Shown piece by piece: positions 429 to 27,566 of a stretch of DNA of 29,171 nucleotides. Below the pieces are notes generated by a model that worked only from the letters and a program-made list of their open reading frames with translations, was not told the origin of the DNA and did no database searches. The stretch comes from a virus. The number at the start of each line of letters is the position of its first letter. Position 1 is the stretch's first letter. Made by a program: the position numbers and the translations under genes. The stretch is taken from positions 1-29,171 of the IMG/VR virus record IMGVR_UViG_3300045988_155594. One strand, given 5' to 3'.

Positions 429-821
429 CGATTCAGTGACATCCGCTTTTGCGTTGCCAAGGTAAATTAATCAATGGTATACAACTATGTTGCTACCAAG
501 GTTCATTTTGTGTATATGATGGGGCGATAGTTCCCACATCTCATCAGAATTTACATTCCTACCCTTGACACTTTCGTGCGCGATAGCCATCTTTCTATCC
601 TCACATACACAATCAGAATGTTTTCTTTCAGTCAACAGACCTATCCAACTTGAGGTAAACACATACAACCCTACGGAAGCTATAAACACTATGCATTCTG
701 GAACACAATGTTTAATCATAGCTTAACAGAATCAAATCTGTAAAAGTCTCAATCACCACATATTCCCTTATAAATGGGTGCTAGTTAAGACCTATTTATA
801 TTAACATTATTTGTGTCACAT

Positions 822-1971: not shown

Positions 1972-2007
1972 TATTTTAATATCAAATTATACCCCAATAT
2001 ACCCCAA
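1958..2007. repeat. Three copies of TATACCCC: an 11-bp inverted pair plus a perfect tandem 10-mer
   Basis: GGGGTATAATT (1958-1968) is the reverse complement of AATTATACCCC (1985-1995). TATACCCCAA is tandemly duplicated at 1988-1997 and 1998-2007. Candidate integrase arm-type or regulatory sites. Confidence 0.6.
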
Positions 2008-2010
2008 GAC

Positions 2011-2038
2011 AAATAAAAAAGCCTTTAAATAAAGGCTT
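2011..2038 (-). terminator. Rho-independent terminator between the lysis genes and the integrase promoter
   Basis: AAGCCTTTA (2019-2027) pairs with TAAAGGCTT (2030-2038). The minus strand then reads UUUUUUAUUU (plus-strand A-run 2011-2020). Confidence 0.7.
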
Positions 2039-2047
2039 AAATTTCAA

Positions 2048-2066
2048 TGGAGCAGATGAGGGGATT
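2048..2066 (-). other. Candidate attP core: a 19-mer resembling the 3' end of a tRNA gene
   Basis: The minus strand reads AAT-CCCCT-CATCTGC-T-CCA. This parses as T-loop end, 3' T-stem strand, 3' acceptor strand, discriminator and CCA. The upstream sequence does not continue a cloverleaf. A terminator follows 9 nt later and the repeats and int lie beyond it. Confidence 0.35.
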
Positions 2067-2233
2067 ATATAAATACCTCATATCTATTGATATTTGATGT
2101 TATTTACATCATAATCTACGTGTTTTGATAGCACTTTGTTGTTTTGTACCCCAAAATGTACCTCACTGCTTCACGCAAGAAAGATAATACAGTATAAACC
2201 ATATTATGTCAAACATTTTTTTGTTTTTTTATT

Positions 2234-3310
2234 TTATTCAATTTCTGTTAACGGTGTTGGATCAACCCAAACACCACCAATCTTGACAATATTCTTTTGA
2301 ACATTCACTGCATCGACTCTGATTCTAGATACGTAGACTACTGCATTTGTGGTATGCAATACATTGTCATTATATCCATCTGAATTTGGTACTTTATCGA
2401 CTAAGCGAATTGGAAACCAACCACCTAATTTAGACAAGTAGCAGCATAAATCATCGCCAATTTTCTTCAAGCCTTGATTGCCAATTTTCATATGTACAGA
2501 TGTAACATAGCTTCCTTCATGCAAGATTTGGTCGATAGCTTCTGCGCTAGACTGTGTAGCGCCTACTGGTGTATGGGGATCTGTATCAATACCCGCATCA
2601 TCCGTCCATCCAATCGCTACCCCATTACGATCAACACGATATGGATATTTTGTTCCTTTAATTACTCTACCAATGACACCTGACCAATCACCTTTTTTAA
2701 CTGTAGAAGTTCCGTAGCAATTCACACTCAATGTGTTTGTACAGATAGGTAAATTAACTGAATATTTTTCTCCACTTGGAGTTGTAGGTTTTGGTGTTTC
2801 AACCTTTCCATCTAACTTTGCATTTACTTCATTAGCCAATTGTGGCATACGTGCTTCCAACCATGCTCCAGGGCATGATGTAGCCGCAAACATTTTGTGC
2901 ATAGTCAATGATCCGCTAGAATTTCCTGTATAGTTCAATCTAAATCCATATCGTTTACAAATATCAACACATAGATTCACCAAGCTATCCCAAGTAGCTT
3001 GCGTCATTTCTCCAGTTGCGTTATTAATGTTTCCACATTCAATTGTAATTGATTGAGAATCATTCAACCAATTTGAACTTGTCCATGCAGCATTTTCTTC
3101 ATCAACACTGCATGCAATGTCTCCATTAATTCCAATACAATAATTGGAAGATGCTTGACGAGTATTTCGTGCAAAATAATCTGCACATTGTTTACCACTC
3201 CATGCCGCAGCCATGTAGTGTGGAGTGATTTTACAAACCTTATATCCAAAACGACCATTATAATGTTGTGATGTTCTGTTACAATATGTTGCTAATCCGG
3301 AATATGACAT
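2234..3310 (-). CDS. Endolysin: N-acetylmuramoyl-L-alanine amidase (Amidase_2/PGRP type) with a putative C-terminal wall-binding region
   Basis: 358-aa ORF next to the holin. The N-terminal ~165 aa carry ITPHYMAA, SNYCIGINGDI..VDEENAAW, SITIECGN and MHKMFAATSCPG. A TPKPTTPSGE linker follows, then about 190 aa of beta-rich C-terminus. Confidence 0.88.
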   Translation of the reverse strand: MSYSGLATYCNRTSQHYNGRFGYKVCKITPHYMAAAWSGKQCADYFARNTRQASSNYCIGINGDIACSVDEENAAWTSSNWLNDSQSITIECGNINNATGEMTQATWDSLVNLCVDICKRYGFRLNYTGNSSGSLTMHKMFAATSCPGAWLEARMPQLANEVNAKLDGKVETPKPTTPSGEKYSVNLPICTNTLSVNCYGTSTVKKGDWSGVIGRVIKGTKYPYRVDRNGVAIGWTDDAGIDTDPHTPVGATQSSAEAIDQILHEGSYVTSVHMKIGNQGLKKIGDDLCCYLSKLGGWFPIRLVDKVPNSDGYNDNVLHTTNAVVYVSRIRVDAVNVQKNIVKIGGVWVDPTPLTEIE

Positions 3311-3405
3311 TCTTCATCTACACCTTCTTCCTTGCCATTGCTTAATTCTTCTTTTGCTTCTTCTGATAGATTCTCATAATCTACTACTTTTTCTTCATCA
3401 TTCAT
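3292..3405 (-). CDS. Possible 37-aa acidic peptide bridging the holin-endolysin junction
   Basis: The ATG at 3405 lies 2 nt after the holin stop, and a GGAGGA sits inside the holin 3' end. My translation is MNDEEKVVDYENLSEEAKEELSNGKEEGVDEECHIPD. It overlaps the endolysin start in another frame and is too short to judge. Confidence 0.2.
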   Translation of the reverse strand: MNDEEKVVDYENLSEEAKEELSNGKEEGVDEECHIPD

Positions 3406-3407
3406 TA

Positions 3408-3635
3408 TTATTCCTCCGGTACACTAATTTCAGGTAATCCGCCAATACTAGTCAGCAACGAGACGATGCCTGACAAAACCGCTGACGAAATTACAACTCG
3501 CCAATCAACGGCTTCCAATAATGCAGATGCTCCGATAACACCAACAGCAGTTTGAGCAATTGTCTTTAATGCTCTAATACTTGCGTAATAGCCATATTGA
3601 ATCCACCATTCTTTACTATATTTTTTCATTTTCAA
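3408..3635 (-). CDS. Holin (two predicted transmembrane helices, Dp-1/LL-H-like pattern)
   Basis: 75 aa, immediately upstream of the endolysin. The N-terminus is basic. Hydrophobic segments are LKTIAQTAVGVIGASALL and VVISSAVLSGIVSLLTSIGG. The C-terminal tail is acidic. GGATAGGAGG SD. Confidence 0.75.
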   Translation of the reverse strand: MKMKKYSKEWWIQYGYYASIRALKTIAQTAVGVIGASALLEAVDWRVVISSAVLSGIVSLLTSIGGLPEISVPEE

Positions 3636-3669
3636 ATACCTCCTATCCTAATGATAGTATTTAAATTGA

Positions 3670-3687
3670 TTGTACACTGTACAAAAT
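3670..3687. promoter_or_regulatory. 18-nt near-palindrome TTGTACACTGTACAAAAT, copy 1, upstream of the holin
   Basis: Identical 18-mer at 25608-25625. The half-sites TTGTACA / TGTACAA are inverted around a central C. The centre is about 43 nt upstream of the holin ATG. Confidence 0.5.
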
Positions 3688-3708
3688 AAAAGACCGTATT
3701 TAACGGCC
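3682..3708 (-). terminator. Terminator closing the cargo operon
   Basis: The minus-strand RNA reads GGCCGU-UAAAU-ACGGUC (6 bp with one G.U) followed by UUUUAUUUU. It starts immediately after the stop codon at 3709-3711. Confidence 0.55.
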
Positions 3709-4182
3709 TTATTGATACATATTAAACATGTCTCGTATATGTGTCTTAATCATTGTTTTTTCTTCATCTGAATCAACGCATCCATGAATCATAGTTACGA
3801 TTTGTTGCATACATTTCATAGTCTTATCTAATTCACGATGAGACTTTTCCAAATCCATCTCACCTTTTGTACGCGTATATTCTTCTTTGAACGCTTTATA
3901 TTTTTTCAAATGTTCTGCAAGTTTATAAACAATATCTTCTGTTTCTGGATCATGAATATTATATCCATCATTATCTTCTTTTAATCGGGCTACAGTTGAA
4001 ACTCCATCTTTTCCTATCTCAATTTGATATTTATTTCTCATTGCTTCTATAGTTTCAATGTCTTTGATATTATCTAAAGCTTGAGATAATGCATGGAAAT
4101 AAGATTCTGCATATCCATATTTCTCTAACATGTTTACTGACTCATGCATTATCTTTTCATTAACTTCCATTGCTTTATGCAT
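3709..4182 (-). CDS. Hypothetical acidic, helical protein (cargo operon gene 5)
   Basis: Open frame with the start moved to ATG 4182 (AGGTGA SD 6 nt upstream) instead of the track's GTG at 4191. I recognise no motif. Confidence 0.7.
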   Translation of the reverse strand: MHKAMEVNEKIMHESVNMLEKYGYAESYFHALSQALDNIKDIETIEAMRNKYQIEIGKDGVSTVARLKEDNDGYNIHDPETEDIVYKLAEHLKKYKAFKEEYTRTKGEMDLEKSHRELDKTMKCMQQIVTMIHGCVDSDEEKTMIKTHIRDMFNMYQ

Positions 4183-4191
4183 ACTTTTCAC

Positions 4192-4611
4192 CTACGCAAT
4201 CTTCTTAATAATGATGTTTGCATTTTGAACAGATAAATCTAAGCCACTGTTATTTGCTAATGCAATTGTATAAGATGCACCACATGGAACTTGAATTAGA
4301 GTGTCTCCACTTACATTTCCATACGCACTTGCAGTTGCAACAGTATAAATAGATTGTGTTCCACCAATTGCTTCTCCGTTTAGTTCAAGCACTAGAGAAG
4401 CTTGTCCTGCCGCTGCACTCGTAATATCCGCAGTATAAGTTACTTCATAGATACCTGGCTTTGTTAGTGTAAACAATCCACTTCCTAGATCGTGTGCCAA
4501 CCATCCTTTACATGGACACTGGCATGATTTTGATCTTACACGATCTGTAGGAAACAAAACATTATTTGAATTATCGACTGTCTGAACAGCCGTAGCAATA
4601 CTATTAATCAT
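4192..4611 (-). CDS. BclA C-terminal-domain / C1q-TNF-like jelly-roll protein (cargo operon gene 4)
   Basis: 139 aa with an AGGAGG SD. The pattern NVLFP...G.FTLTKPGIYEVTYTADITSAAAGQASLVLELNGEAIGGT...GDTLIQV..GASYTIALANNSG..L.V.NANIIIKKI matches the recurring beta-strand pattern of BclA-C-like exosporium domains. This is from memory only. Confidence 0.55.
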   Translation of the reverse strand: MINSIATAVQTVDNSNNVLFPTDRVRSKSCQCPCKGWLAHDLGSGLFTLTKPGIYEVTYTADITSAAAGQASLVLELNGEAIGGTQSIYTVATASAYGNVSGDTLIQVPCGASYTIALANNSGLDLSVQNANIIIKKIA

Positions 4612-4698
4612 TTCTTTTATCCTCCTATTAAAATAGGGATAGCCTTTCGACTATCCCATTAAATCCAAAGGCAATTGCCTAATCACATATGTGCTAGA

Positions 4699-5322
4699 TT
4701 ATAAGTTGTTGTAGCCATTACATCCACATAAGTTGTTATAAGCGTAATATGGTGAACATGTAATGTAAGCTGGTTTTGGTGTTGGTTGCAAAGTATTAAT
4801 GATGTTTGCTGATTGTGCCTGTTGGCTTAATTGGAAATTAGCTGTTAATAAATCGCGGTCACGATCAGCTAAACGATCACGTAACTCTTGCATAGTATTT
4901 GCGTTAATCAACGCACGTGTTGCTTCACCTTCTGAATGAATTGCTGTTGTAATGTCACAAGTGTTTTTGAAACTTTGAGCATTTACATTATCAATTGCTC
5001 GTTGAGTGTTGCAGCAACATTCTTGTTGCTGAGCTTGCAAGTTTTGAAGTCCTAACTGATTAGTATAGCGACTTTCTAATACATCACGTTGAGTTTGACA
5101 ACCTGTTTGAGATACATTTGTGTTTGTGTTAAAAATATCTCGTTTAATGAATTCTTCATTTAATAAAGAATCATTTGTTAGGTTTCCGTTGCCATATCCT
5201 CCATATCCAAATAATACGAAGATTAGCAAGATCCAAATCCACCAACCTCCTCCGTCTCCAAAGCCGTCATTTCTTTCGGCTAAGTTGTAAGTTGGTTGAA
5301 TTCCCATTCCGTTTTCCATCAT
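4699..5322 (-). CDS. Single-pass membrane protein with a Gly/aromatic YjcZ-like N-terminus and a Cys-rich, Q/N-rich C-terminal domain (cargo operon gene 3)
   Basis: 207 aa with an AAAGGAG SD. GFGDGGGWWIWILLIFVLFGYGGYGNGN forms the only hydrophobic helix. All 8 Cys lie C-terminal to it (GC, ECCC, TC, TC, LCGC). Confidence 0.7.
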   Translation of the reverse strand: MMENGMGIQPTYNLAERNDGFGDGGGWWIWILLIFVLFGYGGYGNGNLTNDSLLNEEFIKRDIFNTNTNVSQTGCQTQRDVLESRYTNQLGLQNLQAQQQECCCNTQRAIDNVNAQSFKNTCDITTAIHSEGEATRALINANTMQELRDRLADRDRDLLTANFQLSQQAQSANIINTLQPTPKPAYITCSPYYAYNNLCGCNGYNNL

Positions 5323-5363
5323 ATATGTTCTCCTTTCTTTCTATAATAACGGTTTAGCCGTTG

Positions 5364-5606
5364 TTACCTGATTCCAAACTGTTTTGCCATTTGTTGCAGT
5401 TGTTGCTTTTGTTGCGGATTTAAATTACCCATCATCTGATTTAAAATCATTTGTGGATTTTGACCACTGTTCATAAGCATTTGAAATTGTTGAAATGCTT
5501 GTGGATTTTTCTGTGATAGCATATTCATTAACATTTGTTGGGGATTTCCCATATTCATCATATTCATTGGATTCATATTTCCCATAATACTTTTTAAAGG
5601 ATTCAT
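5364..5606 (-). CDS. Low-complexity Met/Gln/Asn-rich 80-aa protein (cargo operon gene 2)
   Basis: The ATG overlaps the upstream stop (ATGA at 5603-5606), and AAGGAG lies 9 nt upstream. Sequence: MNPLKSIMGNMNPMNMMNMGNPQQMLMNMLSQKNPQAFQQFQMLMNSGQNPQMILNQMMGNLNPQQKQQLQQMAKQFGIR. Confidence 0.6.
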   Translation of the reverse strand: MNPLKSIMGNMNPMNMMNMGNPQQMLMNMLSQKNPQAFQQFQMLMNSGQNPQMILNQMMGNLNPQQKQQLQQMAKQFGIR

Positions 5607-6043
5607 TTTGTTTGTGCTCCTTTCTTTGGTTGTTCATTAGCTTGTTTTGGTGGCTTGCTTAATGCACATATCAAATCATCTAATTTCTTTTCGATTCCAT
5701 TTACACGATTTTCAATACTGTTAGAATTATCTTCCGTGATTTCTTCAAATTTGAACTTTTTAAATGTTCCGTCTAAAGCCTTCATATAGAAAATAGATTT
5801 GTTATTATCGAATAAAATCGTAGGTAGATTTGCGTTCGCAAAGTTTTTAGCTTCCTGTTCGTCATTCACCCATTTTCCATTAAAATCAAAATTACCTTGT
5901 TGTTGTGGTGTAATCTGATTATTAATATTGATAGGTGGAATATTTGCATACTGTTGTACTTGCTGAATTTGTTGATCTATCATTTGTCTTTGCTGCATCA
6001 AACTGTCAATTCGTGCTTGTGCTGGATTATAATTGTTATACAT
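5603..6043 (-). CDS. Hypothetical protein with a Q-rich N-terminal half (cargo operon gene 1)
   Basis: Start taken at ATG 6043 (AAGAGGTGG SD) rather than the track's GTG at 6052. The N-terminal half is Q/N-rich (QQRQMIDQQIQQVQQY). The C-terminal half is a mixed-charge globular-looking segment with a basic tail. Confidence 0.7.
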   Translation of the reverse strand: MYNNYNPAQARIDSLMQQRQMIDQQIQQVQQYANIPPININNQITPQQQGNFDFNGKWVNDEQEAKNFANANLPTILFDNNKSIFYMKALDGTFKKFKFEEITEDNSNSIENRVNGIEKKLDDLICALSKPPKQANEQPKKGAQTK

Positions 6044-6066
6044 TTCAACCACCTCTTTACGCTTTA

Positions 6067-6095
6067 ATTATATGTTTACGTAATAAATAATTTAA
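6067..6095 (-). promoter_or_regulatory. Candidate promoter of the cargo operon
   Basis: The minus strand reads TTAAAT (6095-6090), a 17-nt spacer, then consensus TATAAT (6072-6067). It lies between terminator 6123-6155 and the SD of ORF 5603-6043. Confidence 0.45.
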
Positions 6096-6122
6096 TACTC
6101 GAATAATACTCATAAAATACCC

Positions 6123-6155
6123 AAAATAAAATGAGCAACCATTATAGATTGCTCA
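6123..6155 (-). terminator. Terminator after the sigma-region-4-like gene
   Basis: TGAGCAA (6132-6138) pairs with TTGCTCA (6149-6155). The 10-nt loop contains the stop codon. The minus strand then reads UUUUAUUUU (6131-6123). Confidence 0.6.
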
Positions 6156-6375
6156 CATATTTATCGAACATTTTTCTTGCTTTGCATACTCTGTTCCTTA
6201 TGGTTTGTACTTCCACACATAATGCATCTGCAATTTCGGTACATGACATATCATACACGTATCTCATAATCAAAACCTGTTCATATTTCTTTCTTAATCC
6301 AACAGATTTGATAAGTATTAATGCATCATTAGGACGTATTTCTTTTAATCTGTTAGCTTTGTTAATATAAACCAC
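6142..6375 (-). CDS. Small sigma-70 region-4-like HTH protein (77 aa; no regions 2 or 3)
   Basis: LRKKYEQVLIMRYVYDMSCTEIADALCVEVQTIRNRVCKARKMF fits the region 4.2 pattern L..r...vl.lry..g.s..EIA..l.....tV..r..rAr..l. The start is uncertain because the GTG at 6375 abuts the AAGGCGG motif. Confidence 0.65.
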   Translation of the reverse strand: MVYINKANRLKEIRPNDALILIKSVGLRKKYEQVLIMRYVYDMSCTEIADALCVEVQTIRNRVCKARKMFDKYVSNL

Positions 6376-6383
6376 CGCCTTAA

Positions 6384-6617
6384 TTAAATTCGTTGGTTTG
6401 AATTAGCTTCGCAAGAACAATTATTCACATGATCATCTTTCCAATAACCACGACAAACAATAGTAGAATAAAGAACAATAATCACTAAAACCAATACTGT
6501 AATAATCGTTCTACTTGTTTTATAGTTTCGATCAATTAATTTTGAACAAAAACCATAAATGTTATCTACTTTTTCTTCTACATTTTGAAGTTTCTTGTTT
6601 GCATCTTTAATATCCAT
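6384..6617 (-). CDS. Small bitopic membrane protein with an N-terminal coiled coil and a C-terminal TM helix (XhlA-like architecture)
   Basis: 77 aa. KKLQNVEEKVDNIY is coiled-coil-like, and the TM helix is IITVLVLVIIVLYSTIV. A short Cys-containing tail follows. It overlaps the upstream ORF by 11 nt. Confidence 0.6.
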   Translation of the reverse strand: MDIKDANKKLQNVEEKVDNIYGFCSKLIDRNYKTSRTIITVLVLVIIVLYSTIVCRGYWKDDHVNNCSCEANSNQRI

Positions 6618-6900
6618 TTTTATTACGTTCCTCCAACGCTTCTACACGATTAAACAAAGTTTTTATTTGTTGTTTTAGTTCTGAAAGCTCCACTTCCATT
6701 GAATTGCTTCCTTTTTTTATTTCTGAAATTGAATCTTTAATATCACCTAAATCCGATTTAATATGTTCCAATTCATTCTTCAAAAATGCCATATTGGATA
6801 TTTGCTCTCCATCCATCTTTCGTGTGCCACGATTATACGTAATAAATGCAATTACAAGCATGCATGCAGAAATAATAACACTAAGATATTCTCCACTCAT
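6607..6900 (-). CDS. Small bitopic membrane protein with an N-terminal TM helix and a C-terminal coiled coil (BhlA/UviB-like architecture)
   Basis: 97 aa with an AAAGGA SD. The TM helix is YLSVIISACMLVIAFITY. A long heptad-like charged segment follows (ELEHIKSDLGDIKDSISEIKK...ELKQQIKTLFNRVEALEE). Confidence 0.6.
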   Translation of the reverse strand: MSGEYLSVIISACMLVIAFITYNRGTRKMDGEQISNMAFLKNELEHIKSDLGDIKDSISEIKKGSNSMEVELSELKQQIKTLFNRVEALEERNKNGY

Positions 6901-6963
6901 ATTCGTTTTCCTTTCAAGTTTTCATCCTATTTAAATGCAACAATTCACTAATTTCTTATTTAG

Positions 6964-8964
6964 TTAGTTTGCATTTCCGAATCTTGTTATATTTTTTGAG
7001 CCTTGTATAGTATCATAGATACAATTAATTGCAATTAATTTGTAGTAATCAGATATAATCATATCCTTATTATAATTGTTTTTACAAACACAATTACTTA
7101 GAATAATATTTCCTCTATCTGTAGTTGCTGAATCATTACCTGCATATATTCCCACATTATTGTCATGGCAGTATACATTGCTAATATTTATTTTAGCACC
7201 ATGAGTAGGAGTTGCAACTCCGCCTTTTCCACAGTTATACCACTCACCACCATTAACAACACCACAGCAGGCATCATGATGTGAAATACCGTCATCTTCA
7301 CAATTCCATGCGGAACAGTTTATAAAATTTGTTGTTCCTGTGTAATGGATATTAAATCCGTCGCAATGGTATTTTTGATTTCCTTTTTTTGTTGTTCCTA
7401 TATTGTATGCAATACAATTGTATACATCAGCATCAATATATTGAAAAGCAAATCCACCAACAGAATTGCTTGGCGAAATAATTCCAATATCGTGAACAAT
7501 GCAATCGTTAAATGTTATTTTTTGACATCTACTTGCATACACTCCATTAATATAACAATTTTTTATTTCAAAATCAGAAAATGAGCAATTGATGCTGTCG
7601 TAAATACTAATTCCTTTTTCAATTTCTTTTAGTGAACCATCAATAATAATTTTAGGATTATCTTCATCTTTGCCAGCAGAAAAAGAATCATAATATCTGT
7701 CAAGTGCAATATGAATACCTGATTTTCCACTTATAGATATTCCATCTGTATAGATTCCTTCTTTAACAAATATATTTTTTATACCACTGTCTATAGCTTT
7801 TTGAATTGTTTTAAATGGTGTTGAACGAGAAAAGCCATCATTTAAATCTGACCCTTCAGCTGATACGTATCCAATATTTTTCTTTCTTTCTGATTGTAAT
7901 ATTTTTTCTCTAGCTACAAAATCATTTGCAGTTATATGTGGAATATATTCGTAAGGATGTGTACCATTACTATCTTCAATTTGTAATTTTATAGTGGTGC
8001 GTTCTCCATAATCAACACCACCATATCTACCTATAGACCATACAATAGATGTTGATAAATCATTTATTTTGATAGTTTTTCTTTTTATATTTCCTGCAAT
8101 CATTTCTGTCTGCAATGTACTTCCATCACTATTAAATGTCCTGATATAACCGTTAATTTGTTTATCAGAAAATACATAAAATGTATAAGTTTTTCCCGCT
8201 ACTAAAGGAAGTGGTTGGCTATATTTAGAAAATGAATTATTGCTCATTCCACTAAAAATATATTCATTATTTTTTATTTTAGCTGAAACTCCATTAAAGT
8301 TTTCATAAACAGGCATTTTATTAATGTCTAAAATGTTTTTAGTTATTGATGTTAAACTACCTATTTCTTCTATTAGCGAATTAATTCGTGCTTGTAAATG
8401 TGTATTTCCTTCATCTATTTTTTTGTTTAAATCATCATTTTGCTTATTTATCATCTTTGATAATTCGTTATAGATTTGTGCAATTTTATCTTCTTCCTCA
8501 CTACTAGGTGTATAGGATTTAATATAAATTCCATCAGGTGTAATTACAGATGCAATTTGTGTAGACCATCTTTGATCAATTACACTTGAACTATTTTTAG
8601 TCACAACTGCATTCATTGCAAAATGTAATGCTCCTGAATTTTTCAAAGCATCAAACGGTACTTTCCACGCAAATTCACAAATATCATTATTAATTGTTTT
8701 GTTAATCGCAATTGACTGACCCTTAACTCCCTTAGAATCAATCCAATTTATATAAACAATTGAATCTTGCATTTTTTGAATATCAGATAACTTGTTTCTG
8801 ATTCTAAATTTAATCAGTTTAGAATTTCCATCATATTGTACTCCAAACAATCTAGATACATTATTAATATTAATAGTATGTGTATCTGTATCAATCGTAA
8901 GATATTCATCATCATAATCATAAGCAACCGCATCAAAGCTTAGTCTTGCTTTCAATCCATCCAT
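6964..8964 (-). CDS. Tailspike / receptor-binding protein: BppU-like N-terminus, coiled coil, and a C-terminal right-handed beta-helix (pectate-lyase-like depolymerase) domain
   Basis: 666 aa. The N-terminal pattern is YDGNSKLIKFRI...ALHFAMNAV. The helix-domain start is GYVSAEGSDLNDGFSRSTPFKTIQKAID. Repeated NC-x coils follow (IKNCYINGV, FNDCIVHDIG, VYNCIAYNIG, FINCSAWNCEDDGISHH, VYCHDNNVGIYAG, LSNCVCKNN). Confidence 0.75.
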   Translation of the reverse strand: MDGLKARLSFDAVAYDYDDEYLTIDTDTHTININNVSRLFGVQYDGNSKLIKFRIRNKLSDIQKMQDSIVYINWIDSKGVKGQSIAINKTINNDICEFAWKVPFDALKNSGALHFAMNAVVTKNSSSVIDQRWSTQIASVITPDGIYIKSYTPSSEEEDKIAQIYNELSKMINKQNDDLNKKIDEGNTHLQARINSLIEEIGSLTSITKNILDINKMPVYENFNGVSAKIKNNEYIFSGMSNNSFSKYSQPLPLVAGKTYTFYVFSDKQINGYIRTFNSDGSTLQTEMIAGNIKRKTIKINDLSTSIVWSIGRYGGVDYGERTTIKLQIEDSNGTHPYEYIPHITANDFVAREKILQSERKKNIGYVSAEGSDLNDGFSRSTPFKTIQKAIDSGIKNIFVKEGIYTDGISISGKSGIHIALDRYYDSFSAGKDEDNPKIIIDGSLKEIEKGISIYDSINCSFSDFEIKNCYINGVYASRCQKITFNDCIVHDIGIISPSNSVGGFAFQYIDADVYNCIAYNIGTTKKGNQKYHCDGFNIHYTGTTNFINCSAWNCEDDGISHHDACCGVVNGGEWYNCGKGGVATPTHGAKINISNVYCHDNNVGIYAGNDSATTDRGNIILSNCVCKNNYNKDMIISDYYKLIAINCIYDTIQGSKNITRFGNAN

Positions 8965-8966
8965 AT

Positions 8967-9260
8967 CTAAACTCCTTTCACTTGAAGGACACCTTTTAAT
9001 GGTGTTTCTTTAATTCCGTTCACATCAATACGAACCATCCAATTATAAACACCAACAGAAAGTTCATCTGTTTGGCAAATTACCTTCAAAGATTCATCAA
9101 TAGGAATTTTAATAAGTTCTTTGCCATCTTTATAAATAATGAACTCTAATGAATCATCCTTGCCAGGAATAAATACTTGTCCATTCTTATACTTAATTAA
9201 AATATCTGTATAGATGGTATCTCCTTGATTTATGAAAATATGATCTCTTTTAATTTCCAT
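8967..9260 (-). CDS. Hypothetical small baseplate-region protein
   Basis: Start taken at ATG 9260 (GGAGAGG SD), 2 nt after the upstream stop. 97 aa with beta-rich composition. Confidence 0.6.
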   Translation of the reverse strand: MEIKRDHIFINQGDTIYTDILIKYKNGQVFIPGKDDSLEFIIYKDGKELIKIPIDESLKVICQTDELSVGVYNWMVRIDVNGIKETPLKGVLQVKGV

Positions 9261-9262
9261 TT

Positions 9263-10309
9263 TTAATCCTCTCCATATCTTTTTGCGCCTTTCCATTCAA
9301 GTCCTGTATCACAATAAAGTCTACATTTCTCAAATGTTTTTCCATCACTACTCAAAACAAGTGATTTTCCTTTTTTCCAATTATTCCCATCAAACACCCA
9401 TACTTCTCTATAAGCGGCAGATGCAATGATAAAAAAGTAAAACATATCACTCGTTCTTCCTAAAGTATCTGTTACATAAACAAGCATTCTATACTCATTC
9501 CCATTCTGCACTTTAAATTCTTTTGTAAGATTATCTGAAGTTAAATCACTTCCCATACCATCATAATCCCAATGACTCTTTGTAACATGTGCATCATCCG
9601 TTGTATGTGCAACACACACTGCTTTATCATACTTATCATCAATATGAGATATAGTTACATCTACACTCGTTACAGATATCTTTTTATAGTCTTCTAACGT
9701 TGTTGCTTCTAATACTGTTTGAAGTAAATACGATCCCGAACAGTCGGCCATAAACGGTTCGATATGAAATTCATAATTTGTCGAACCTTTCAATCCACTT
9801 ACAACATGTGTACCATTTAATTTGTCCACAATAAATTTTTTTGTTGCACTTGAATAAATACGCAAAGTATACAAATTGTAAGGATTTGTTTTTAGCCTTC
9901 CATAAATAGAAATTGAGGTACTATTAATATCTGATATCTCTGCTTCATACGTTGGCAGTTCAATCTCAGGTGTAGTCAATGTTGCTGTTCCTTTTAAATT
10001 AGGCCATCCTTGACAACTCGCATACCATTCAAAATGCCGTTGCCTATTGCAGTACATAGGATCATTAATTTGTCCTAGATAATACCATCCTGAATCTTGG
10101 ATATAGTTTAAATCCCATCTTGAAATAGTTTTAGAAAGTCCTCCAAGAGTAACAACATTGGTTGCTTGGATTTTGAAGTTTCCGGTAAATTTAAACCTTA
10201 CATCCGCTTTAAATTTTAAATTAGGATATGACCCTTCATATCTTTCATTGTAGGATTCAAATGTAAGTATTAAATACGGATTATAGGGTAATGTTGCTAA
10301 AATAGTCAT
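9263..10309 (-). CDS. Baseplate/tail accessory structural protein (possible FN3-like segment)
   Basis: 348-aa ORF in the baseplate block. The segment ISDINSTSISIYGRLKTN..YTLRIYSS...VVSGLKGSTNYEFHIEPF looks like a fibronectin-III repeat. Confidence 0.55.
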   Translation of the reverse strand: MTILATLPYNPYLILTFESYNERYEGSYPNLKFKADVRFKFTGNFKIQATNVVTLGGLSKTISRWDLNYIQDSGWYYLGQINDPMYCNRQRHFEWYASCQGWPNLKGTATLTTPEIELPTYEAEISDINSTSISIYGRLKTNPYNLYTLRIYSSATKKFIVDKLNGTHVVSGLKGSTNYEFHIEPFMADCSGSYLLQTVLEATTLEDYKKISVTSVDVTISHIDDKYDKAVCVAHTTDDAHVTKSHWDYDGMGSDLTSDNLTKEFKVQNGNEYRMLVYVTDTLGRTSDMFYFFIIASAAYREVWVFDGNNWKKGKSLVLSSDGKTFEKCRLYCDTGLEWKGAKRYGED

Positions 10310-25446: not shown

Positions 25447-25607
25447 AAACTAACAGTAAATACTTTGAATGCAGTGATATGAAAAAGACCCATGTTTCCA
25501 CAGGTCTTTTTCAACGGGCACGAAATAATGAAACAATCCAAGAACTACCTTGTTTGTTCAGAAGATGTTTTCCAATCTTCACGACTACAGAATATCACGG
25601 TTTTTCT

Positions 25608-25625
25608 TTGTACACTGTACAAAAT
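25608..25625. promoter_or_regulatory. 18-nt near-palindrome TTGTACACTGTACAAAAT, copy 2, upstream of the late operon
   Basis: Identical to 3670-3687. It lies 160-230 nt upstream of the possible HNH start codons. Confidence 0.5.
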
Positions 25626-27065: not shown

Positions 27066-27566
27066 ATGTGTGAAATGAAAGCTTATATTACAAATTTAGG
27101 TAAATACAATGAGGGTTGTTTAGTTGGTAAATGGATTGATTTTCCTATCGATGAGGATGATTTTACAAGCGAACTTGAAAGCATTGGAGTGAAAGAAAAC
27201 ACAATGTATGAAGAGTGGTTTATCACTGATTATGATTGTTCATTGTTTGATATGTATGATGCATTTGGTGAATATCCAAACATTGACGATATTAATGAAG
27301 TGGCTGAAGCATTAGAAGACAATGAAAGTGAATTCACTGCATTAATGGAAGTATGCAGCTATACGGATGCATTAAAATACTTAAAAAGTGAAAACTACAC
27401 TTTTTATGAAGGCATGACATTGGAAGATGTAGCTTATGAACTTGTAGAAGAATGTTATGAGCTTCCAGAAATTGCGCAAAGATATTTTGATTATAAAGCG
27501 TTCGCGCGTGATCTTGGCTATGATGGATATTGTGAAACTTCAACCGGAGTTATTTACACATGCTAA
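27066..27566 (+). CDS. ardA: Anti-restriction protein ArdA (DNA mimic)
   Basis: Start taken at ATG 27066 (AAGGAGG 8 nt upstream). The N-terminus YITNLGKYNEGCLVGKWIDFPIDEDD and the C-terminus YFDYKAFARDLGYDGYCETSTGVIY closely parallel Tn916-type ArdA as I recall it. The composition is very acidic. Confidence 0.85.
   Translation: MCEMKAYITNLGKYNEGCLVGKWIDFPIDEDDFTSELESIGVKENTMYEEWFITDYDCSLFDMYDAFGEYPNIDDINEVAEALEDNESEFTALMEVCSYTDALKYLKSENYTFYEGMTLEDVAYELVEECYELPEIAQRYFDYKAFARDLGYDGYCETSTGVIYTC

Follow-up and report, generated by a model that had tools for sequence, protein, structure and literature searches.

What is the function of a small set of genes that lies between the tailspike and the lysis genes of a phage, appears to carry its own switch, and encodes no recognisable virion, lysis or DNA-metabolism protein? 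The question is raised by positions 3709–6375 of the IMG/VR record IMGVR_UViG_3300045988_155594, a stretch of 29,171 nucleotides analysed here at its full length (the window), which belongs to a Bacillota siphovirus-type phage or prophage with all its late genes on the minus strand. A first-pass annotation, made from the sequence alone, had described a separately transcribed operon of five open reading frames (ORF1–5, the cassette) with a sigma-region-4-like helix-turn-helix (HTH) protein, and had proposed that it either remodels the spore or cell surface or forms a sigma-plus-holin release module. Comparison of the window with related contigs and loci (denoted by labels such as L010, a Waltera prophage, L146, L215 or P0068) identifies the region as a conserved, horizontally exchanged six-gene module, consisting of the sigma-region-4-type HTH gene and a putatively bipartite operon. 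At a probability of roughly 45%, we favour the reading that it is an accessory module centred on the membrane, expressed late under the gate of an activator and linked to lysis or egress.

The five cassette genes, all on the minus strand, have the ends first assigned to them, including the ATGA overlap of ORF1 and ORF2, and the first two products are indeed low-complexity proteins rich in Gln, Asn or Met. ORF1 (5603–6043; 146 residues from an ATG start, with a GTG at 6052) contains 26% Q+N and is laid out as a Q-rich N-terminal helix, an invariant and disordered PPININN linker, a small α/β domain and a C-terminal helix; its AlphaFold2 (AF2) model has a mean pLDDT of 71.7, reaching ~90 across residues 57–98. 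None of its 99 homologues has a functional name, the model matched no PDB fold (best E 0.4), and its 13 matches in BFVD at E≤1e-3 are all uncharacterised proteins with machine-made names from uncultured sipho-, podo- and myovirus-like phages. ORF2 (5364–5606; 80 residues), translationally coupled to ORF1 via the overlap, is 57% Q+N+M with zero acidic residues, and its slot is filled by a small protein, likewise rich in Q and M, in L010, L075, L011, L012, L008, Clostridium perfringens phage CPD1 and Butyrivibrio phage Ceridwen. ORF3 (4699–5322; 207 residues) is the hallmark protein and the only cassette product with a hydrophobic segment (residues 24–43). This segment, flanked by Gly and Trp, is followed by a long Q-rich helix, an invariant CCC, a PxPxPAY-TCSPY motif and a GCGC-type C-terminus, with 8 Cys in all, so the earlier description of a Cys-rich single-pass membrane protein stands; the likeness to YjcZ is a resemblance only, as NCBIfam returned noise (ribosomal protein S1 at E 0.0078) and no YjcZ model. 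ORF3 matches phrog_16490 and phrog_9288, and among 120 listed homologous clusters there is no functional name or Pfam domain. ORF4 (4192–4611; 139 residues) is a stand-alone BclA-C / C1q-TNF-like jelly-roll domain, as had been suspected, which scores 41 bits with Pfam BclA_C (cut-off 38) and matches phrog_20016 at 1e-18; its best matches among PDB sequences, from a single-sequence query, are weak ones to BclA. Only 38 residues precede the domain, and the GXX collagen-like repeats and N-terminal exosporium-targeting region of BclA are absent from the sequence. ORF5 (3709–4182, or from a GTG at 4191; 157 residues) is the acidic helical protein foreseen (net charge −8), the fastest-evolving member of the cassette, with only 16 representatives among 1.84 billion proteins.

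ORF1, ORF2, ORF4 and ORF5 lack a hydrophobic N-terminal or membrane segment, which we read as the lack of an export signal or anchor. Searches of Pfam, PHROG, NCBIfam and PADLOC placed no cassette product in a characterised virion, lysis, DNA-metabolism, toxin, enzyme or defence family: the five proteins found nothing in NCBIfam and no holin family in Pfam or PHROG (only the neighbouring gene at 3408–3635 matches r1t), and PADLOC gave no real match beyond coiled-coil noise on the upstream gene orfA (LmuB/PbeC models) and ORF1 (JetA, E 0.0083). An Rfam scan likewise found nothing inside the cassette, and we found no description of such a module in the literature, in agreement with the initial impression that the combination matches no described system. 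The genes are under purifying selection, with dN/dS values of 0.03–0.24 for the HTH gene and ORF1–5 against close relatives (0.08–0.24 for the HTH gene itself). The GC content of the cassette equals that of its flanks and the GC skew differs.

Homologues of ORF3 form at least 4,875 clusters at 90% identity in a large protein collection, and two short peptide patterns recovered 347 loci in IMG/VR, the same unit recurring in hundreds of gut phages, some of which infect very different microbes. A search for ORF3 on plasmids found none. The block from orfA to the holin is 92–100% identical in 49 close relatives (L017–L065), and the cassette is carried by all but one of the close relatives fetched (~50 distinct contigs after de-duplication of two scans); across phage lineages it is sporadic, being present in Ceridwen and absent from Butyrivibrio phages Arawn and Idris. 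More distant phages retain the gene order, namely a small HTH, ORF1-like, ORF2-like and ORF3-like genes, a small β-rich protein and a helical protein, as seen in L010, L075, L066, L078, L011, L012, L008, CPD1 and its relatives, Dulem virus 33 and Ceridwen. In L011 and L012, prophage-like loci on Oscillospiraceae and Faecivicinus metagenome-assembled genome (MAG) contigs, the cassette directly follows an XhlA-like gene and an r1t holin. Beyond Bacillota, ORF3 homologues occur in Suoliviridae crAss-like phages, Bacteroides phage C3_41T2LP and viruses assigned to Methanomassiliicoccales, with the GGWW hydrophobic segment, CCC, LSxQQAQ(T/S)ANI, PxPxPAYLTC(S/N)PY and the GCGC end all kept; in crAss-like cr53_1, cr4_1 and cr1_1 the homologue adjoins the holin.

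The clearest case for transfer is a second lineage of ~37-kb phages (the L075 group), in which tape measure, Dit, tail and Phage_holin_4_1 holin genes are followed by an 88-residue HTH, ORF1–5, a GH25 endolysin and an integrase. Identities to the window are 53% for ORF1, 65% for ORF2, 78% for ORF3, 85% for ORF4 and 34% for ORF5, which here overlaps the endolysin start by 4 nt. At the nucleotide level the two share 70% identity only over 6073–4189, from just upstream of the −10 element to the ORF4 stop, with unrelated flanks, while similarity to L010 spans the HTH gene to the ORF5 start. On these comparisons the cassette evidently moves as a unit between otherwise unrelated phages. Within the unit, the fourth slot holds either a BclA_C-type protein (ORF4A) or a non-homologous β-rich protein of 118–146 residues (ORF4B; CPD1, L008, crAss-like phages), and the fifth an ORF5-type protein, another helical type or DUF7841 (L008). 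As these two slots vary between versions, ORF1, ORF2 and ORF3 constitute the conserved core. We rejected ORF4A and ORF4B as divergent homologues (hhalign probability 1%), and likewise ORF5 as a divergent DUF7841 (0.1%). Apart from the weak ORF4–BclA matches, profile searches of PDB sequences with ORF1, ORF3, ORF4A, ORF4B and ORF5 gave noise only.

Both sides of the cassette evidently undergo brisk module shuffling. Among the 49 close relatives the C-terminus of the tailspike and the endolysin are swapped, the tailspike keeping only its first ~30%. Endolysin identity to the Amidase_2 enzyme of the window ranges from 37% to 99% among L017–L065, and for some the alignment covers no more than 30% of that enzyme; in L004, another close relative, the lysin is of the CHAP type.

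How would such a unit be expressed? The HTH gene (6142–6375, minus strand; 77 residues) matches Pfam Sigma70_r4_2 at 35.9 bits against a cut-off of 25.7 (E=5.8e-9), as anticipated. Sigma region 2 is absent in Pfam searches and NCBIfam sigma models align to the protein over their last ~50 positions only; with 77 residues and region 4 alone, the regulator is therefore not a sigma factor of the TcdR or UviA type. The gene starts 8 nt after orfB, the second of two small genes that follow the tailspike, we found no strong independent promoter for it, and the terminator scan found no terminator-like site between the tail genes and the HTH gene. This last result suggests that the HTH gene is probably co-transcribed with the late tail genes, and that expression of the cassette is most likely late-lytic.

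Between the HTH gene and ORF1 lies a compact arrangement that recurs, in other letters, in distant relatives. An intrinsic-terminator-like hairpin with a T-run follows the HTH gene (6121–6156, or 6156–6131 in the scan, minus strand; 10-bp stem). It is followed by three direct repeats with 11-bp phasing (GGGTATTT / GAGTATTA / GAGTATTA; 6093–6122, minus strand), the last overlapping the −35 element, which we propose as the operator of the HTH protein; the octamer GAGTATTA is found nowhere else in the window. The promoter candidate, TTAAAT-17-TATAAT, lies exactly where it was first placed (6067–6095, minus strand), although as a sequence it is weak: its −35 matches 3/6 of the consensus, for which reason it fell under the threshold of our consensus scan. 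Backing for it comes from conservation of the upstream plan in divergent relatives, and a poor −35 fits activator dependence. Across ten versions this plan comprises a hairpin (8/10), two or three repeats about one helical turn apart (7/10) and a diverged spacer of 20–33 nt, then TATAAT (in the window, L010 and L075) and a conserved ribosome-binding-site (RBS) region. The hairpin after the upstream gene has equivalents in L010, L075, L066, L078, L011, L012 and CPD1, not in L002 and L008, and is succeeded by phased repeats in the window and all of these except CPD1. In L010 and L075 the TATAAT and the RBS region TAAAGCGTAAAGAGGTG after it are kept and the spacer diverges.

The repeats themselves differ between versions (TAGTAT three times in L010, TTGACAT twice in L075, GATACT twice in L066 and L078, TTCCCGCG twice in L011), and their sequence changes wherever the HTH changes. 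A small HTH stands directly upstream of ORF1 in L010, L075, L011 and L012 as well, and only that of L010 is a clear homologue of the HTH of the window (79% identical); those of L075 and L012 fall under the Sigma70_r4_2 cut-off, that of L011 has no region-4 match, and in L066 the HTH at this place is the C-terminus of an AgrB-like membrane protein. Since the repeats lie outside the stretch in which window and L075 are similar, which starts between them and the −10 element, regulator and operator would seem to have been exchanged together and separately from the cargo. Joint exchange, and repeats that track the HTH, are the signature expected of an activator-dependent promoter with a dedicated activator. 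The AgrB-like regulators of L066 (2744–3316) and L089 (4938–5528) have 190–196 residues, with an AgrB-like domain (Pfam AgrB 4.6e-11, above threshold) and a C-terminal HTH; a membrane-bound regulator of this kind would allow signal-dependent control.

Terminator-like sites are frequent in this part of the window, 10 being found in 2000–9500 against 2.3 ± 1.5 in shuffled sequences. Both terminators of the first-pass annotation are among them, the one after the HTH gene and the one that closes the cassette (3680–3710, or 3710–3690 in the scan, minus strand; conserved in L010), and they rank second and third on the strand. The best-ranked site had been overlooked, as had the phased repeats and the palindrome described below. 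It is a hairpin with a 9-bp stem (5 G–C pairs) at the junction of ORF3 and ORF4 (4627–4657, or 4657–4636 in the scan, minus strand). A hairpin with a T-run occurs at this junction in 10/10 versions examined, with compensatory stem changes among the window, L010 and L075 and unrelated sequences in the more distant versions. Such persistence argues for a conserved attenuator that would set the ratio of ORF1–3 to ORF4–5.

The holin and endolysin appear to be under separate control. Immediately upstream of the holin lies a perfect 15-bp palindrome, TTGTACA-N-TGTACAA (TTGTACACTGTACAA; 3670–3684), with an exact second copy at 25608–25622, upstream of the late operon that begins with the HNH endonuclease, TerS and TerL. 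The 15-mer has 118 exact matches in IMG/VR, of which 60 are in this phage group and always at these two places, each relative in that collection having it at both; the holin-side copy is also found upstream of the holin in L010. We considered the holin-proximal palindrome as the operator of the cassette and rejected it, as there is none upstream of ORF1 and the second copy is at the terminase operon; it is a candidate shared late operator of the holin and terminase units. On these predicted signals three late units can be told apart, namely a packaging-to-tail operon ending with the HTH gene, the HTH-dependent cassette and the palindrome-associated lysis pair.

The tie to lysis or egress is argued from placement. 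The cassette occupies three kinds of lysis junction: it can lie between an XhlA-like gene and a holin (in the window, orfA and the r1t-type holin), separate a holin from an endolysin, or come after a holin; in the L075 lineage ORF5 appears translationally coupled to the endolysin, and in crAss-like phages the module adjoins the holin. In the mechanism we propose, the HTH gene would be the last gene of the late tail transcript, and the terminator behind it would insulate the cassette from that transcript. The HTH protein would then bind the three helically phased repeats over the weak −35 and activate a 'later-than-late' promoter, with the hairpin after ORF3 lowering the dose of ORF4 and ORF5 relative to ORF1–3, and with holin and endolysin controlled separately via the palindrome common to the terminase operon. 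As the only membrane-inserting product, ORF3 would nucleate a complex at the cytoplasmic membrane, its partners being the signal-less ORF1 and ORF2 and the trimer-type jelly roll ORF4; ORF2, rich in Met and Gln, is a candidate chaperone for the hydrophobic segment of ORF3. The complex may act at or just after holin triggering, either as an accessory to lysis or egress or by affecting the fate of membrane and progeny after lysis. It could assemble on the cytoplasmic face of the membrane, or its soluble parts could come into contact with an externally exposed domain of ORF3, only after the holin has breached the membrane.

A bolder version of this mechanism, which we regard as speculative and rather unlikely to hold in full, is that the cassette encodes a new late-acting membrane machine, an ORF3-anchored Cys-rich coiled-coil complex with exchangeable jelly-roll heads that acts during or after lysis. 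Equally tentative is the corollary that this machine is common to phages of Bacillota and Bacteroidota and to viruses assigned to methanogenic archaea, its target being the cytoplasmic membrane, the envelope layer that these hosts share. Possible roles include membrane remodelling or vesiculation, a step in egress, and keeping progeny from re-adsorbing to debris.

Several observations weigh against the lysis or egress reading, and our confidence in the membrane function itself is low. The cassette products have no characterised homologue, and function has been read from context. The AF2 model of ORF3 is unusable (pLDDT 46.7), and its positive-inside counts are weak, leaning slightly to a cytoplasmic C-terminal domain. 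Promoter, operator and attenuator are predictions, and in this AT-rich DNA promoter-like sites are not enriched (37 found against 43.5 expected). The position is not constant either: in C. perfringens phages the cassette lies ~3.5 kb downstream of the holin, after antirepressor/KilA and before Gam/recombinase genes, and in Bacteroides phage C3_41T2LP it lies among recombination genes. In L012 the prophage ends with the cassette, the next ORF being RimM-like and of the host, and in L011 we recognised no phage-like ORF after it. The end of a prophage, as in L012, is a classic place for conversion genes, and the stretch where lysis genes meet the end of a prophage is known to collect unrelated cargo, which makes position alone weak evidence.

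Other explanations compete with this one. A lysogenic-conversion or superinfection-exclusion moron, expressed from the prophage so that ORF3 and its partners alter the surface or block incoming phage DNA, would account for the predicted promoter region and flanking terminators, for a membrane protein as centrepiece, for a location that adjoins host genes in L012 and is close to the integrase in both the window and Dulem virus 33, and for a variant, L146, in which the cassette may have proved dispensable. We nonetheless find it doubtful. The HTH gene is not separated from the late tail genes by a terminator-like site and has no strong promoter of its own, the cassette of the L075 group is enclosed by the lysis genes, with the holin on one side and the endolysin, to which it is coupled, on the other, PADLOC found no match, known exclusion systems usually have one or two genes rather than five, and occurrence in crAss-like and plaque-isolated phages argues against lysogen-only roles. 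What remains of the moron first proposed is a module with its own regulator, predicted promoter region and terminators; a sporadic lysogen-expressed insertion is unsupported, given that the cassette is near-universal in close relatives, keeps its order in distant phages and has no terminator before its HTH gene. A virion-associated accessory, either a fibre or a decoration, with ORF3 as shaft, ORF4 as exchangeable head and ORF1, ORF2 and ORF5 as assembly chaperones, strikes us as less probable again. It would suit a cassette directly downstream of tail fibre or tailspike genes (window, L008, vir335), a conserved 'stalk' with non-homologous 'heads' (ORF4A and ORF4B) as in receptor-binding modules, the 'viral fiber' or 'spike' labels that crAss annotators gave to ORF3 homologues and the single-contig fusion of a tail-fibre N-terminus to ORF3 (P0068 and L089). 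It sits badly with a purely hydrophobic, Gly-flanked segment conserved in ORF3, with a terminator that insulates the cassette from the structural operon, with the absence of structural PHROG matches, with C. perfringens and Bacteroides phages that carry the cassette among early or recombination genes, and with a distribution over particles as different as those of sipho-, podo- and myovirus-like contigs and crAss-like phages.

That the products are cargo released at lysis, by a logic like that of Shiga toxin (Stx), to act on competing bacteria or the animal gut is improbable in our view: four of the five lack a hydrophobic N-terminal or membrane segment, the L075 version is coupled to its endolysin, ORF4 belongs to the BclA-C / C1q-TNF-like fold family and all sources of stated origin are animal gut or rumen samples, but ORF3, which is conserved best, is anchored in the membrane and not soluble, many versions have an unrelated protein in place of ORF4, Pfam and NCBIfam show no toxin or enzyme domain, and a gut-only distribution may mirror database sampling. 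Least probable by far are the two proposals of the first-pass annotation, which host distribution and domain content have largely refuted already. Remodelling of the spore or exosporium surface was suggested by the BclA_C match and by an ORF3 rich in Gly, Tyr and Cys like coat proteins, and some hosts are spore formers (e.g. C. perfringens), others belonging to the Oscillospiraceae and Lachnospiraceae, groups that include spore formers. The ORF3 family, however, extends to phages of non-sporulating hosts such as Bacteroides, to crAss-like phages, to archaea-assigned viruses and to a Butyrivibrio phage, with a near-identical copy in a MAG labelled Solobacterium; BclA_C-type ORF4 is itself present in Ceridwen and in that MAG, and so is not restricted to spore-forming hosts. 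ORF4 corresponds only to the C-terminal domain of BclA, and ORF3 lacks a YjcZ match. A sigma-plus-holin release locus of the TcdR/TcdE or UviA/UviB type had in its favour a sigma-region-4 domain close to a holin, and against it a regulator without region 2 and cassette proteins that match no holin family; what survives of the idea is the logic of signal-less proteins made beside a holin. We conclude that the cassette is probably neither a spore-coat modifier nor a lysogen-expressed conversion factor.

The closest regulatory parallel is with the late transcriptional activators of Gram-positive phages, the RinA / ArpU / LtrC / DUF1492 superfamily (Quiles-Puchalt et al. 2013, PMC3753634): there, too, a small phage-encoded sigma-like DNA-binding protein switches on a lysis-linked late unit, but from a gene upstream of terS and so as to drive the packaging-to-lysis operon, whereas the HTH gene of the window comes last in the late operon, ~19 kb away from terS. 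The candidate operator of the HTH protein is found only before the five-gene cassette, and the protein matches none of these families in Pfam. For the cargo, the obvious comparison is with stx, which in lambdoid phages is located between Q/pR′ and S-R-Rz as late-expressed cargo at the lysis cassette. Both comprise non-structural genes adjoining lysis genes, with expression confined to the lytic cycle and effect or export tied to lysis, as we would suppose for the cassette; the cassette differs in that its products show neither a toxin nor an enzyme domain, that it has five genes, one of them for a membrane anchor, that it has an activator and terminators of its own rather than antitermination, and that it is conserved across phages of different phyla.

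TcdR/TcdE and UviA/UviB of clostridia likewise combine a sigma-related regulator and a holin with nearby genes for signal-less proteins. Group-5 sigma factors have regions 2 and 4 and ~180 residues, unlike the 77-residue, region-4-only regulator of the window, where the holin is an ordinary r1t-type lysis holin and there is no toxin or bacteriocin gene. BclA, the exosporium glycoprotein of the Bacillus cereus group, shares with ORF4 its C-terminal TNF/C1q-like jelly roll, but ORF4 is a bare domain encoded by phages, among them some whose hosts do not sporulate. Two-component spanins and the T4-type class III holin have one N-terminal transmembrane (TM) helix and a large extracytoplasmic domain; ORF3 resembles them in its N-terminal hydrophobic anchor, long Cys-containing coiled-coil region and lysis-cassette position. 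It differs in that no sequence relationship was detected, its hosts are mostly monoderm, it has no lipoprotein partner, and ORF3-bearing crAss-like phages have a separate LysB/FtsL-like gene.

In the window the late genes run along the minus strand from the HNH endonuclease, TerS and TerL (25446–23016) through head and tail genes to a β-helix tailspike (8964–6964). The two small membrane or coiled-coil genes noted after the tailspike are present. The first, orfA (6607–6900, minus strand; 97 residues), combines an N-terminal TM segment (hydrophobic residues 3–23) with a coiled coil in an XhlA-like architecture, has weak PHROG matches to the 'hemolysin' families phrog_937 and phrog_1193 and to phrog_1863 (4e-7), and accompanies the cassette block in close relatives. 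The second, orfB (6384–6617, minus strand; 77 residues), has a single TM segment (hydrophobic residues 34–58), 4 Cys and no family match in Pfam and PHROG searches. Beyond the cassette lie the r1t-type holin (3408–3635, minus strand; Pfam Phage_r1t_holin 1.9e-11, phrog_443), the Amidase_2 endolysin (2234–3310, minus strand; Pfam 6.7e-17) and the integrase (1919–822, minus strand). The copy in the Solobacterium-labelled MAG is 99% identical to the window, another copy resides on a 100-kb metagenome contig adjoining radC, mreC and polA, and no TerL of a GenBank phage comes closer than 48% identity. Rfam places two adjoining orphan structured RNAs of unknown function shortly downstream of the integrase gene: a skipping-rope RNA (511–609, minus strand), which scores 53.7 bits where the cut-off is 36.7, and a drum RNA (613–724, minus strand), with 82.2 bits where it is 43. 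The late operon starts with a strong hairpin (GAAAAAGACC...GGTCTTTTTC, 25480–25512) located between the HNH gene and the palindrome upstream of it; this may be either a terminator that antitermination would override or an element of the packaging site.

Some related loci depart from the common pattern. On the 44-kb contig P0068 a protein begins with the first ~80 residues of an N-terminal domain of tail-fibre type and continues as ORF3 from approximately residue 17, and in L089 (5869–6918) ORF1 and ORF2 are missing and a tail-fibre gene abuts ORF3; the fusion is either a recombinant or a misassembly. L146 (IMGVR_UViG_3300045988_089490) lacks, at 6595–7029, the C-terminus of the HTH, ORF1–3 and the N-terminus of ORF4, and its junction holds a 42-nt fragment, with 2 mismatches, of the plus-strand gene at 27225–27266 of the window. 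Being either a natural deletion or rearrangement, as in a defective prophage, or a chimeric assembly, L146 says little on whether the cassette is needed. In the crAss-like loci L014 (cr53_1) and L215 (cr4_1), the 'RNA polymerase sigma factor/ubiquitin-like protein' beside the ORF3 homologue is a strong DUF7841 member (1.9e-42), and the ORF3 homologues of crAss-like phages go under the names 'spike protein/glycoprotein' or 'outer capsid protein/viral fiber'. Such labels look like artefacts of weak coiled-coil matches; another among module members is 'Phosphoprotein', and existing annotations are generic or misleading. Genes of cr53_1 have in-frame TAG codons, pointing to stop-codon recoding.

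What does the module mean for the phages that carry it? Late activators, and cargo placed at a lysis cassette, are familiar, so that its regulatory logic has precedents; its effector set has none. Were the membrane machine envisaged above to prove real, it would represent a new functional class of phage lysis or egress genes with a dedicated transcriptional switch. ORF3-type proteins number thousands of 90%-identity clusters in at least two bacterial phyla, with those of crAss-like phages mislabelled 'spike glycoprotein' or 'viral fiber', and the module is present in cultured phages, namely C. perfringens CPD1, HMD-PC1 and 17DYC, Butyrivibrio Ceridwen and Bacteroides C3_41T2LP. The pairs of HTH and direct repeats appear to define orthogonal late promoters, which may be usable for engineering phages of Bacillota. 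A lysis-cassette unit that is widespread, self-regulated and strongly selected points to a step in the life cycle of gut phages that lies outside current models of lysis and assembly.

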